Assembly: GCA_951406725.2 (NCBI GenBank)
Contig: OX597827.1
Span: forward strand, 60,760,001-60,824,000
Origin: Octopus vulgaris
Lineage: Eukaryota
DNA: 64,000 nucleotides
Direction of reading: 5' to 3'
This document shows positions 12,780 to 62,923 of the stretch, piece after piece. The notes beneath the pieces are model-generated. The model was not told the origin of the DNA. It saw nothing but the letters and a program-made list of their open reading frames with translations, and ran no database searches. Position numbers and translations under genes: made by a program. Every line of letters begins with the position of its first letter. Within the stretch, counting starts at the first letter, position 1.

Positions 12780-13895
12780 AACATATCTTGTACTAATTCA
12801 ATATAACAAAGCAATATCCATCACTGGTCAAATATAACCAAAACATTATTTAATATTGGTTAAAAGTAACCAGAACCATATTCAGTGATGGTTCAACGTA
12901 ACAGAACCATAGAGTTGCAACAAACTTCTTATTAGCAAAACCAACAAGTTACTTCCAATTCTGATTTCACATTGCATCATTTGTATGTGAACAAATAGAA
13001 AAGGATATCATAGCTACTGAAATTAAAATATAATGTAATTGCATACAATATTGTTTAACCCTTCAGAATTCAGATTACTCTGTCAAATGTAATGTTTATT
13101 TATTCAGATTGTTTTTGAATTAATCATGCATTAACTTGTCATTTTCAGATTTCACTGATGATGTGATTGTTTATTTTTAGAATGATGTTGTTGGGTAGGT
13201 GTGAGAGGTTGGATCTGAGTTTCTTTTAACATAAAATAGGTAAAATAATTAAGGTGTGTATTGCTGGTTTAAATGCTGAAGGATTAAATATAACAGAATC
13301 ATATTGATCAGATGTAGCAAAATCATATCCATTATTGCTCAAATTAAACAATGCTGAATGTGTGTGCATGTGTATAAGTTTACTCATATATATATATATA
13401 TATATATATATATATATATATATATGATATATATATATACACATATAATTATATACATATATATGTATATGTAGGTATGTAATATACATTTATATATATA
13501 TATGCGTGTGTGTAGATATGTATGTATATATAAATAAATATATATATATATATATATATATATATATAAACGTATAATATATATATATATCTCTATATAT
13601 ATGTGTGTGTGTGTGTATATATATATATATATATATATATATCCATATAAACATATATATGTATATGTAGTTATGTATATATATATATGTGTGTGTGTTT
13701 ATATGTGTGTGTGTGTGTATAGATATGTATATGTATATATATGTATGTATGTGTGTGTGTGTGTGTGTGTGTGTGTGTGTGTGTGTGGGTGTATACATAT
13801 GTATATATATTGTTTTTTTAGAAAAACATAAATCCAGAGAAGCACACTCTAAGAAATAGAGCGGTCTATATTTATTACCGGTGAAGGCTGGTTTA

Positions 13896-13954
13896 TAGGG
13901 TTACCCTGGGTTTCTTATCATAAAAGGTACTTTATGGTGTATCTTCAGACCCTA
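13896..13954 (-). ncRNA. Type I hammerhead motif (left arm of inverted repeat)
   Basis: Reverse complement: tagggt CTGAAGA ...stem II... GAAA ccc-a-ggg TA acccta. Confidence 0.72.
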
Positions 13955-14303
13955 AGACCTGTTGGCCTATGGCCTCTTTAAAATATAGAGGGGAAACGAA
14001 ACAGATATAAACAATAGGGATTATCTCCCTTTGGTGTTGGTCATCGGCTTCAGGCTGTGCTCCTTCAGCTACGCCACCTGTCAGTTATGAGTGTAAAAGG
14101 TAGAGGGTTTTCTCTCACTCTCATCAGCAATCAATTTCCAGTGGTGGTGTAATTAGTGCTAATATTGCTAGTATCGCTATTATGCGGTTCCCAAATGCTG
14201 GCAGGAATCACCTGAAATGCAAGCATGGCCCGGAAATCTCCATTCTAGGGGTCAGTATTGCTTCCCTCTCCATATTTTAAAGAGGCTATAGGCCAACAAG
14301 TCT

Positions 14304-14363
14304 TAGGTTCTGAAGATACACCATAAAGGTACCCTTTATGGCGAGAAACCCAAGGTAACCCAA
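14304..14363 (+). ncRNA. Type I hammerhead motif (right arm)
   Basis: taggtt CTGAAGA tacaccataaaggtaccctttatggcga GAAA cccaagg TA accca, then AATAAA. Confidence 0.65.
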
Positions 14364-14735
14364 TAAACTGGCCTTCACCAGTAATATATATATATATAAA
14401 TGTATAATATATATGTATATATGTCTCTCTCTCTCTATATATATATATATATGTGTGTGTGTGTGTGTGTATCTATATATATATATATATATATATATAT
14501 ATATATATATATGTATATATACATGTACATATATATGTGTATATATGTATATATATACATATATATATATATACATACATGTTTATATATATATATATAC
14601 ATATATATATATGGAGGTAGAGAAATAGAAACAAAAATATATATATTATAATTAAAATAATGAAATTTTTATAAACAAAATTTTAAAGCATTGCAAAGCA
14701 TCAGCGTTTAAAAATAAAAGAAATAAAAAAACAGG

Positions 14736-14869
14736 TTATAATACAGCAAGGATATAGTTTACCAAACAGCGGAATTGTGTCCATAAAACCATAATAATCA
14801 GCTCTACTAATTCAATGGCTGTCACAAGGCTTGCTCCAAGGAAAAGTCCCATCTGGCCACCGAATTGAG
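14736..14869 (-). CDS. DEG/ENaC channel, last coding exon (TM2, GAS filter)
   Basis: Acceptor TTCACAG|; AQFGGQMGLFLGASLVTAIELVELIIMVLW...VL*; the joined CDS is 1482 nt (493 aa plus stop) with all phases consistent. Confidence 0.92.
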
Positions 14870-59350: not shown

Positions 59351-59755
59351 GATCCAATCTCTCACACCTACCCTACAATGTCATTCTAAAAATATGCAAA
59401 CACACCACTGAAATTTTGAAGCTTCAAAATAACATGTGATTAATTCAAAACAATGGAACAAACTGCTGGCATCAGTTGTTAGTTGTCGGAGCACTGCATC
59501 ATTCAAAACTTCCATGCTTCCTGAGGTTCGCCAACACTACACCTGATTTTCTCCCCTCCACACACACGCAAACATGTATCTGACTCATACACTGTTCACT
59601 TCCCAGACATTTGTACATTACTGCATATGCTTTATACGCACCTGAGCACTGTATAAAATAATTTCATTATTATAAATAAGTAGTATATTTGACAAAGAAA
59701 TCTGAAATCTAAAGGTGTTAAGATAAAAACAGAACAAAAAGATGCAAATACTTAC

Positions 59756-59881
59756 AACATCATGAATTGCACGATTAAAGACATCATCCTCGCTTAGAAT
59801 CAATAAAATAATAAGTGCCATATAAATATGATGGGAGTTTTTGTCTTGTGCATGGTATAGGATTTGTAGAATAGGCATCAC
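59756..59881 (-). CDS. DYM: Dymeclin exon
   Basis: [46 protein letters not shown] boundaries, 126 nt. Confidence 0.93.
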
Positions 59882-61946
59882 CTAGAAAAGAGGGAAAAAA
59901 CTGGTAATACTACTTCGGTAATTCTGTAGATGGAAAAACTGTATCTTCAATTATTAATAGAAAACAAAGTAAAATATATAACAGGCGTAGGAGTGGCTGT
60001 GTGATATAGGTGCAGGAGCGGCTGTGTGGTAAGTAGCTTATAGGTGTAGGAGTGGCTGTGTGGTAAGTAGCTTGCTTACCAACCACATGGTTCCGGGTTC
60101 AGTCCCACTGAGTGGCACCTTGGGCAAGTGTCTTCTGCTTTAGCCTCGAGTCAACCAAAGCCTTGTGAGTGGATTTGGTAGATGGAAACTGAAAGAAGCC
60201 CGTTGTATATATATATATATATATATATATATATATATATATATATTATGCATGTATGTGTGTGTATATGTTTGTGTGTCTGTGTTTTTCCCCCAACATC
60301 GCTTGACAACCGATGCTGGTGTGTTTATGTCCCCCGTAACTTAGCAGTTCAGCAAAAGAGACTGACACAATAAGTACCAGGTTTACAAAGAATAAGTCCT
60401 GGTGTCAATTTCTTCGACTAAAGGCGGTGCTCCAGCATGGCCGCAGTCAAATGACCGAAACAAGAGTAAAAGAGATAAGCAAATTGGGAGAGTTGTAACA
60501 AATATTACCTTACTTGGAAACAGGTGAGAGTTGGTGACAGGAAGGGCATCTAGCTGGAGAATACCTGCCTCAACAAATTCCATCTGACCCATGCAAGCAT
60601 GGAAAAGTGGATGTTAAAACAATGAGAATGATGATGATGATGTATATATTTTTCTTTTAACCTTTTACATTTAACCTTCTTATGACCATATTTCCGATGG
60701 AATATGTTCTCTATGTGTTTTATTTAATATTTTATTTCAAGAATTTGGAAGGAACTAATAAAACAACTCACTTTTTTTTTTTTGTTAAAATGAAAGGTTT
60801 TAATACATGAGGTCGTGAGTTTAATTCCCGGACTGTGTGTTGTGTTCTTGAGCAAGGCACTTTATTTCACATTGCTCCAGTTTACTCAGCTGTAGAAATG
60901 AGTTGTGATGTCACTGGTGCCAAGCTGTATCAGCCTTTGCCTCTCCGTTGGATAATATCAGTGGAGTGGAGAAGGGAGGCTGGTATGTATGGATGACTGC
61001 TTCTATAAACAACCTTGCCTAAACATGTACCTTGAAGGGGAACTTTTTAGGTGCAATCCCATGGTCATTCATGACTGGTAGTATCCAGACTTACCCAGGT
61101 TTATAGAATGGATTAGAAAAGATCATATAACCTTATGATTTAACCATGACAAGATGTGTCTGTATGCAAACTTTCAGCTATTTCCAAGTAAGGTAATGAT
61201 TTTTCTATCAACCAAATCCATTCACACAGCTTTGGTTGACCAAGAGCTTTATTAGAAGACACTCGCCCAAAGTGCCACACAGTGGGACTGAACCTAGAAC
61301 TGTGTGGTTGGGAAACAAGCTTCTTAACCACACAGCCACATCTGTGTCTATATGAGAATCTATTTCACTCAGGGCAATTTTTTTATATTTCGGGATGTTC
61401 ATTTTGTTTTCTTGCCAAATAAACACACATTATATATTCGTTCATCACTTGTTTATTATTGTTCTTATTTTATGTCCATTGTCTGAAAATATTTCATCAC
61501 ACACCTGTGACATCTTCAGCAACTCTCCATCCCACATCTCTCCTCCTGGTCTTTGTTATTTAGCAAGAAAAAAATGACCACCTTGAAATATAACAATATC
61601 TGTATCAACATACAATTTTTAGTCAGGAGGAAAGGGCCATGCATCGAGCCCTTTCAAGGCTTCCAAGACTGGTGTGAAAGTGGGAGGGAAGAAAAGTATG
61701 GCTGCATGGTAATAAGTTTGCTCCTTAGCCAAATGGTTCCAGCTTCTGTCCCACTGTGATATCTTGGGTAAGTTTCTTCTACAAAAGCCTTGGGCTGATC
61801 AAAGCATTGTGAGTAGATTTGGTAGATAGAAACTGAAAGAAGCCCATCATATATATATATATAAACAATTGCAGCGTGGAAGGTGTTTGTAAGCCATTTA
61901 AGAAACACACAAAAGCCGTTCGATTCACTTCAACATTTAAGTTTAA

Positions 61947-61996
61947 TTTGTCAAAATATTTTCATCGCTAAAATCCGCGACCTGTTCACTGACAAA
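61947..61996 (-). ncRNA. Hammerhead variant with G3:C8 core
   Basis: Reverse complement: tttgtca GTGAACA g gtcgc ggatttta gcgat GAAA atat TT tgacaaa; 7-bp stem I. Confidence 0.62.
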
Positions 61997-62923
61997 TCAA
62001 ACTTAAATGTTGAAGTGAATTGAACAGCTTTTGTGTGTTTCTTAAATGGCTTACAAACACCTTCCACACTGCAATTGTTTTCATTTCAGCACACGATCTC
62101 AGATCAAATCACTTGCTATGCGAGTACATCTCCATAATATATATATATATAAAAGTAGTTTTAGAGACAGAACCACCCTCAACTCAATCAACATTGAAAG
62201 ATATTATACCCGACCTTTTATACTTTTATATATATATGAATAAAATATTGAGAGAAGTTCACTTTAGTACCTTTAATTTGAATGTCTCATTCCTGTGGAC
62301 TCGGAATTAATTTTCCCTAATAATTATAATAATGTATCTATATCAATCTATCTATATCACCATCATCATTTAACATGTTTTCCATGCTGGCATGGGGGAT
62401 GTGTGTGCGTGTGTGTGTGTGGAGGTCCCTCACCCACTGCTTGACAACCATTAATGATGTGTTTATGTCCCTGTAACTTAACAGTTCAGCTAAAGGGACT
62501 GATAATATAGGTATTAGGCTTAAAAAAATAAGTACTGGAGTTGACTCAATCAACTAAAAATCTTCAAAGCATGGACACAATCTAAATGGCTGAAAGAAGT
62601 GAAAGATAAAAGATAAATAGATGTGGCTTGAACGCTTGCAACATAATCGACCCAAGGTGTTAGATGGAGGTATTAAACAGAGGTCATGGATTAGATCCAC
62701 CTCCCATGTAGAATAAAGGGGCCCACTTGGGAGGCAGACTTAATGGCAGGGATGGGGAGGCCAATATTTCATTTTATATACTCCAGAAGAATAAGACATG
62801 ATGCAGAGTTGATCTCAGCAGCATTTGAAGTCAAAATGTAAATGATTGAAACTTGATATAGTAAAATATTTTGTTTGCTACTCCAACAATTGACATCAAA
62901 GATTAGTTTTTGCAAATACTTAC

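Follow-up and report, generated by a model that had tools for sequence, protein, structure and literature searches.

The nine long inverted repeats in a 64,000-nucleotide stretch of the Octopus vulgaris genome (contig OX597827.1 of GCA_951406725.2, positions 60,760,001 to 60,824,000, here called the window) are most probably each the footprint of one insertion of a 5'-truncated Penelope-like element (PLE), or of a small element that follows PLEs. Each would have been built afresh in a (TA)n tract from two complementary DNAs (cDNAs), one primed on each target strand. The evidence comes from the ends of the two arms, from the variants that the arms share and from the coding sequence found upstream of them.

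Nine inverted repeats in the window

The window is microsatellite-rich with 35% GC, in a genome of 2.8 Gb. A preliminary description of this DNA had listed nine inverted repeats, and self-BLAST recovered all of them, with 74–96% identity over the match. In total the window holds 18 local inverted repeats of at least 100 nt; 10 dinucleotide-block shuffles gave 0 each. The layout of a short arm, a junction and a longer arm was seen in 9/9 cases. The end of the short arm lies in a TA tract or near one and the long arm has an extra tail, so the true units are longer than first described.

Two features of the description held in part. (TA)n lies on both sides of six of the nine units. The unit at 15737 has (CA)n on its right and the unit at 21603 runs into another repeat. 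The unit at 29038 adjoins three TAACCC units (29024–29042), a telomere-type repeat in immediate contact with the long arm's cut end. The sequences were said to be mutually unrelated; several families are indeed present, but the repeat at 21603 is a relative of the one at 39215 (68% over 189 nt).

The families are named after their loci: F13 (13873), F15 (15735), F21 (21044), F29 (29053), F33 (32949), F39 (39215), F54 (54438) and F61 (61864). These eight were searched in the genome, the family at 21603 not being among them, and 8/8 are dispersed. Candidates per family range from 31 to 1,903, which are lower bounds and not copy numbers. Exact junctions between a tail end and TA number 441 in F21 and 970 in F39, with 0 in controls. 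The inverted partner arms of F21 likewise terminate in TA.

Arms of three families belong to Penelope-like elements

The proposed PLE origin was borne out. Coding sequence for reverse transcriptase (RT) and GIY-YIG endonuclease (EN) lies directly upstream of the arms in F21, F13 and F33, and relics of PLE enzymes were found within the window, as had been reported (Table 1; also 11570–11874 and 46344–46523). The arms had further been called non-coding; these three families are instead truncated autonomous PLEs.

F21 arms run upstream into an RT thumb and a GIY-YIG domain. The 4,045-bp F21-family unit at locus L462 opens with (TA)n and an inverted short arm, followed by part of the leader. The ATG comes 48 nt past the end of the tail, and behind it lie a frameshifted open reading frame (ORF), a 3' pseudo-long terminal repeat (pLTR), the tail and (TA)n. 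Because of this layout we identify the F21 arms as the pLTR and 5' leader of a PLE. The arms align to this full-length element, in agreement with the suggestion of several families with hammerhead-bearing pLTRs. F21 thus has the features of an endonuclease-bearing (EN+) PLE: a single ORF with RT plus a GIY-YIG endonuclease at its C terminus, a direct pLTR repeat with a hammerhead, an adjoining inverted truncated copy and a one-sided tail.

The F21 protein contains RWL, DKT, a single Cys between GIY and YIG, and CxxC-E-N-CxH, and CCHH is absent; DKT/S is present in 65/65 long F21 homologs. The CxCX5C linker is kept in 55/65 of these homologs and is absent from the F21 copies L062, L462, L463 and L464, where an Asn-rich stretch replaces it. 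F21 copies sit in (TA)n despite lacking this linker, a motif associated with (TA)n targeting. F21 could also be mobilised in trans. Placed by these motifs, F21 appears Hydra-like, and we do not file it as a member of the Hydra clade.

Partial coding sequence, with no full ORFs, was recovered for the other two families. In F13, Hydra-type GIY-YIG ends lie upstream in L168 and L172. In F33, the upstream sequence at L128 and L145 encodes an RT thumb and also a GIY-YIG domain, in which two cysteines lie between GIY and YIG; we take this endonuclease to be Neptune-like by its motifs. Pfam recognised none of the PLE pieces above its cut-off.

No PLE coding sequence was found for F15, F29, F39, F54 and F61 in the upstream sequence shared by samples of 25–100 loci, a stretch of ~870 nt in F39, ~500 nt in F29, ~260 nt in F15 and ~25 nt in F61. 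Extension at F39 loci (L298, L299) and at F29/F15 neighbours (L296, L297) gave no PLE ORF. In 28 loci, F61 copies extend no more than ~25 nt upstream of the ribozyme core. A 3.6-kb direct repeat at L295 was considered as a pair of F61 pLTRs and rejected as a local duplication. F54 is a 357-nt tandem non-coding unit without a PLE protein match, and the arrays in its arms reach about four units.

Insertions pair a short end with a tail end

The outer ends are fixed in each family, one being a short end and the other a tail end 45–170 nt further 3', and the inner ends vary. In F54, all 13 clean head-to-head loci (of 23 distinct) have one end at 356–357 and the other at 304–314. In F33, all 13 adjacent head-to-head loci (of 28) have ends at 161 and 212–219. 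For F21 and F39 we used unbiased, position-ordered samples picked by the tail end alone: 90 of 441 places in F21 (the first 30 and 60 further listed places, one duplicate being dropped) and 70 of 970 in F39. A same-family inverted partner was present at 66/89 F21 and 40/70 F39 loci, and in these samples no partner with a visible end terminated at the tail. Loci directly flanked by TA numbered 14 in F21 and 10 in F39, the remainder being other or open.

Such pairs might be thought to arise when two independent insertions land back to back in one TA tract. Insertions are indeed stacked in TA tracts at 20857–22050, and the composite at 46071–46681 joins two families. Chance neighbours are nevertheless highly improbable, as there is no TA at the junctions, same-family partners predominate in both samples, only 2 weak cases of an other-family partner were seen in the 159 sampled loci, short and long ends are strictly paired, and the arms share variants (below).

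Many of the paired arms do not form a palindrome at all. The arms do not overlap in 28/56 F21 and 17/34 F39 scored inverted loci. They overlap by at least 100 nt in only 12/89 F21 and 5/70 F39 loci, and visible palindromes are therefore a minority. The short arm often extends further 5' than the long arm (L072, L073, L086), including in young copies that are 95–98% identical. A simple fold-back copy cannot give either form. Fold-back, the main rival, would mean that a cDNA primed at the tail end folds over and primes itself, as argued for the Penelope elements of Adineta (PMC3846280), that the second strand joins the target by T/A microhomology at the short end, and that central deletions later produce the asymmetric and non-overlapping forms. 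It would account for the source variants common to both arms, for the near-perfect hairpins at some junctions and for the short ends of F21 and F13, which lie within TA-like sequence. In F54 and F61 the short ends are precise, with 1–2 nt of TA homology, and a PLE protein has been seen to extend both strands in vitro (PMC11167929). Together with the arm geometry, this leaves fold-back an unlikely origin.

Target site duplications other than TA alone were found at 10/66 loci without pure-TA flanks, compared with a mean of 2.3 (maximum 6) in shuffles. They are mostly 12–13 nt long, and would be invisible at the 82 pure-TA loci.

These duplications, the fixed family-specific ends and the divergence of the arms (at least 1.4–2.6%) also speak against fold-back artefacts of sequencing or assembly. 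Identical alternative head-to-head joints recur in contigs of 2–4 separate public runs. These recurring joints are other than those of the window itself, which is the one point in favour of an artefact; given the recurrence in independent runs we regard it as improbable in the extreme. The preliminary description had also argued against it, from the mismatches between arms.

The arms share a source and the palindrome is not the mobile unit

Divergence between the arms of one locus and between loci, respectively, is 0.019 and 0.035 in F21, 0.016 and 0.022 in F39, 0.026 and 0.047 in F33, and 0.014 and 0.026 in F54, so that the arms of one locus differ roughly half to three quarters as much as arms from different loci. 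Variants found on both arms number 44 in F21, 7 in F39, 17 in F33 and 26 in F54, against expectations of about 4, 2, 6 and 9. Non-CpG variants are among those shared by the arms of a locus, and most private variants are on one arm. Between loci, the distance of long arms to long arms and short arms to short arms equals that of long to short (0.0397 in both cases), so there is no separate lineage of long or short arms.

The preliminary description held that non-coding palindromes are mobilised as such, either as whole non-autonomous elements or, in a related form, as DNA transposons with TA targets resembling miniature inverted-repeat transposable elements (MITEs). TA flanks fit this, and when a query spanning the F21 centre was used, 40/40 scored places were palindromes with a similar centre. 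That query itself selects palindromic copies, the F21 centre sequences differ locus by locus, and single-arm and tail-picked samples give all junction positions. The arms also continue into PLE ORFs. We consider mobilisation of whole units largely refuted and give it very little credence. A MITE or palindromic DNA transposon was specifically rejected: the ends are asymmetric, the junctions vary, there are no arm lineages and no symmetric unit of fixed length was found. The palindrome arises as a side effect of each insertion and is not the mobile unit, as follows from the variable junctions, the non-overlapping arms in half of the loci and the absence of arm lineages.

Inner ends of the arms

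In F21, 22/37 arms that reach the interval −10 to +19 stop there, the background being 16% in each 30 nt (P 1.5e-9). This test is only partly independent, because earlier samples had served to select the +1 site. The stop site has an Inr-like motif, preceded by a TATA-like motif (−28) and a CRE-like palindrome (−41). The site is likely to be the 5' end of the RNA. In F39, 11/27 arms stop at +118 to +137, just 3' of the predicted ribozyme cut at +120; two of these end calls were corrected by hand. Ribozyme cuts as a general mark of the 5' end were considered and rejected, the match being only approximate in the unbiased F39 sample and absent in F21.

A model for the insertions

We propose that the GIY-YIG nuclease would make a staggered cut ~12–13 nt apart in (TA)n, and that each 3'-OH would prime reverse transcription on the element RNA, one at each of two fixed start sites. 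The cDNAs would halt by random truncation or by run-off at the 5' end of the RNA, which may be the pLTR promoter start in F21 and possibly the ribozyme cut in F39. The two cDNAs would then be joined head to head by end joining, giving a palindrome only where both cover the same stretch. Stumps without a promoter would be dead ends. F54 and F61, and probably F15, F29 and F39, would be copied in trans by PLE enzymes. In vitro, a PLE protein of Anolis cleaves both strands and extends them, starting at two internal sites (PMC11167929), and these two sites match the tail.

Several observations weigh against this model of two primed strands. The end calls are automated BLAST boundaries, accurate to a few nucleotides. 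No same-family inverted partner was found in 23/89 F21 and 30/70 F39 loci, and one F21 locus outside the samples (L063) has two tail ends. Fold-back or gene conversion would likewise give arms of the same source, and the 20 private F21 variants present on both arms bear on this as well. Central deletion of an unstable palindrome could yield non-overlapping arms. Three loci of the F21 test sample recur from earlier samples, and F21 ends do not accumulate at the ribozyme cut (12/92, P 0.07, none within 1 nt). Several F39 ends are exact at the cut in an identity-ranked sample and few in the unbiased one; with the AT-rich stretch in which it lies, the F39 pile-up is a hint only.

A wider reading can be held only tentatively. 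The families might be a genome-wide record of the PLE reaction, in which a dimer cuts (TA)n with a 12–13-nt stagger and its two RTs always use different start sites of the same RNA, one per strand. The RNAs would include the mRNA's own 5' leader, giving run-off cDNAs like strong-stop DNA, and retrozyme RNAs. Some templates would be ribozyme-cut in vivo, and perfect hairpins would be a large source of the long double-stranded RNA (dsRNA) behind octopus adenosine-to-inosine (A-to-I) hyper-editing.

Hammerhead ribozymes

Outward-reading type I hammerheads, full or partial, are predicted in 7/9 loci, the number first described, from a motif scan together with reading by eye. The strict scan gave two hammerheads only (21168 and 29169, both on the minus strand), with 0 in 20 shuffles, and the remainder were read by eye from the window and the family majority sequences. 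Full hammerheads are present at 13873, 21044, 29053, 32949 (with C at position 9) and 61864 (with a G3/C8 swap). Those at 15735, where the 5' strand of stem I is cut off, and at 39215, where only the 3' half remains, are partial, and the window copies at 21603 and 54438 have none. The core nucleotides and stems I–III expected of a type I hammerhead can be recognised in the sequences. Rfam returned no hammerhead among the best 150 of 318 matches, only low-complexity microRNA matches. AATAAA was said to follow the ribozymes often; it follows some of them, in a background that is AT-rich, and is not conserved in the F13 family. Just to the left of the 15737 insertion, at 15625–15702(+), a minimal type I hammerhead end stands by itself, with AATAAA and (TA)17 behind it.

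The commonest core is canonical in F13 (27/40), F15, F21 (53/58) and F29 (18/29). Variant cores are found in F33 (C9), F39 (C4, in 22/26 core-covering arms), F54 (U3, together with the hammerhead fold, in 34/36 arms) and F61 (G3/C8). Stem II carries an insertion of 54 nt in F21 and of ~105 nt in F39 (L112, L114), and F33 and F61 have an extra nucleotide before stem II. When isolated strands were folded, F61 and F33 gave three-way junctions and the five others tested did not.

In F61 the C3-G8 core pair is swapped to G3-C8 in 40/44 matched arms, across two stem II loop variants. These core positions lie at 61983–61989(−) and 46549–46564(+) in the window, and also in L215–L244. Natural covariation of the core to U3-A8 is on record, with G3/C8 described as a laboratory rescue only (PMC11167929), and no report of a natural G3-C8 hammerhead core was found in the open-access literature.

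Abundance and other features of the window

The eight families make up 6.6% of the window. In the flanks of other loci we counted 26 insertions in 662 kb, ~1.0% of bases or one per ~25 kb; this count excludes the focal family, leaves other PLE families uncounted and comes from flanks in which TA-rich places are over-represented. These families are denser in the window than on average, and the estimate of one per 7 kb, as a major component of the genome, was overstated.

Table 1. PLE-type insertions and PLE protein relics in the window.
Feature	Position	Strand	Description
F13 insertion	13811..14384		Long arm − (14261-13814, ~57-nt tail), short arm + (14252-14384); hammerhead cores 13948(−), 14310(+)
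F15 insertion	15737..16027		Short arm − (15852-15739), long arm + (15848-16027); both begin at partial hammerhead core
F21 insertion	20899..21441		Long arm − (21241-20899) with tail of ~145 nt, meeting short arm + (21242-21441) at putative RNA start; hammerhead 21168-21096(−) intact, copy in right arm with mutated GAAA
Further inversion	21454..21596		Probably non-overlapping inversion of a high-copy repeat like the F39/21603 tail; by eye
F39-related insertion	21603..22050 (right end approximate)		Short arm left, tail-bearing long arm right; no hammerhead core in this copy
F29 insertion	29038..29965		Old (arms 74%); another repeat within centre; hammerheads 29169-29097(−), 29886(+)
F33 insertion	32952..33410		Short arm −, long arm + (~55-nt tail); hammerhead core 33196(+), C at position 9
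F39 insertion	39217..39902		Short arm − (39423-39217), long arm + (~170-nt tail); 3' hammerhead half 39460-39480
F54 insertion	54393..54683		Pieces of 357-nt tandem unit, ends at unit positions 357/312; unit's hammerhead outside the copy
F61 insertion	61864..62137		Short arm −, bearing the hammerhead (G3/C8 swap in core 61989-61983); long arm + (57-nt tail)
Two-family composite	46071..46681		Head to head, TA on both sides; Hydra-type GIY-YIG relic with own hammerhead end (46525-46071, −) joined to F61 short arm (~46528-46681, +)
GIY-YIG end relic	7852-7545	−	PLE protein
RT thumb to endonuclease relic	8800-7982	−	PLE protein
RT N-terminal relic	59053..59349	+	PLE protein

The inversion at 21454..21596 is stacked in a TA tract next to the F21 insertion and 21603, and the composite at 46071–46681 is what an enzyme dimer carrying two RNAs might leave. 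F61 and F33 are further represented by solo or old pieces at 19449–19564(−), 43208–43345 and 61571–61613. Inverted duplications of the opposite polarity, centred on a TA tract, are found at 33438–33647 and at L133, L200 and L318. They make up 4 of the 2,411 TA tracts examined and all lie close to PLE-type insertions, for which the sample was enriched.

A LINE-like 3' fragment lies in an inverted duplication at 36000–36716 and 35047–35192, with a repeat piece and a TA tract at its centre. Older inverted repeats of other kinds (68–70%) are found at 10790–11573, 63483–63693 and 49426–49966; the first has short conserved termini resembling a DNA transposon. A gene for an amiloride-sensitive sodium channel (DEG/ENaC) has an exon at 38412–38954(−) (Pfam ASC, E 7e-12), and some insertions are therefore probably intronic.

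Significance

The families give a countable prediction of one short end and one tail end per insertion, and F54, a retrozyme-like repeat, falls under the same footprint as the PLEs. Insertions with long hairpins are a minority, and would be ADAR substrates if transcribed in introns. An unusual wealth of near-perfect dsRNA loci and of hyper-editing has been reported for octopus (PMC5625713), to which PLE hairpins would be a candidate link.

Comparison with known systems

The layout, the opposite-strand hammerheads and the (TA)n targeting have already been published, and these families are not a new kind of system. We found no publication on octopus PLE palindromes in the open-access literature. 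Octopuses are known to have (TA)n-targeting Hydra and Naiad families, among them Hydra-1_Obim of Octopus bimaculoides (PMC8557442, supplement). F21 shares with the Hydra clade a C-terminal GIY-YIG domain without CCHH, DKT, the RW motif, CxxC/CxH around E and N, a hammerhead and (TA)n (PMC8557442); F13 and the relics of the window share the EN part. F21 differs in having no CxCX5C linker and a hammerhead with a 54-nt stem II.

Pairs of hammerheads on opposite strands, 100–700 bp apart, have been attributed to truncated PLEs (PMC4209133). The octopus hammerheads resemble the PLE hammerheads of that study in their short palindromic stem III, in the extra nucleotide before stem II (F33 and F61) and in the opposite-strand pairs. 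They differ in the long stem II insertions of F21 and F39 and in the variant cores of F61, F39, F54 and F33.

Retrozymes have been described as followers of PLEs (PMC7229834; bioRxiv 10.64898/2026.07.22.740005); the word 'inverted' is absent from the main text of PMC7229834. F54, with its 357-nt non-coding tandem unit and type I hammerhead fold, is like the non-LTR retrozymes of metazoans described there. It differs from retrozymes in that its arrays are inverted and two-armed, with a short end and a tail end of the PLE type, and in its variant core.

In the twin priming of LINE-1, an inverted 5' part is primed by the second target strand, with microhomology at the junction. The octopus insertions differ in having fixed internal start sites, arms that often overlap by 100–300 nt and no poly(A). 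A published twin-priming model of PLE inversions was not found in the open-access literature. The origin of the inverted pLTRs and one-sided tails is treated as unsettled in the discussion of PMC8557442, and the two start sites and both-strand extension seen in vitro are not linked to inversions in PMC11167929.

The closest parallel is Pen2a_Av of Adineta vaga, for which an inverted pLTR, a one-sided tail and a target site duplication have been described (PMC3846280), as in the general scheme of Craig et al. 2021 (PMC8557442). Units of Pen2a_Av and of EN+ PLEs share with the octopus families the head-to-head inverted, 5'-truncated pLTR, the tail at one end, the short target site duplication, the TATA- and Inr-like motifs of the pLTR, the Asn-rich insert between RT and EN, and the layout of two direct copies and one inverted copy seen at L462. 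The tails of Pen2a_Av are 30–40 nt long, whereas those of the octopus families are 45–170 nt, and unlike Pen2a_Av units most octopus copies are stumps of 100–700 nt. The non-overlapping forms favour priming on two strands over the self-priming proposed for Pen2a_Av (PMC3846280).

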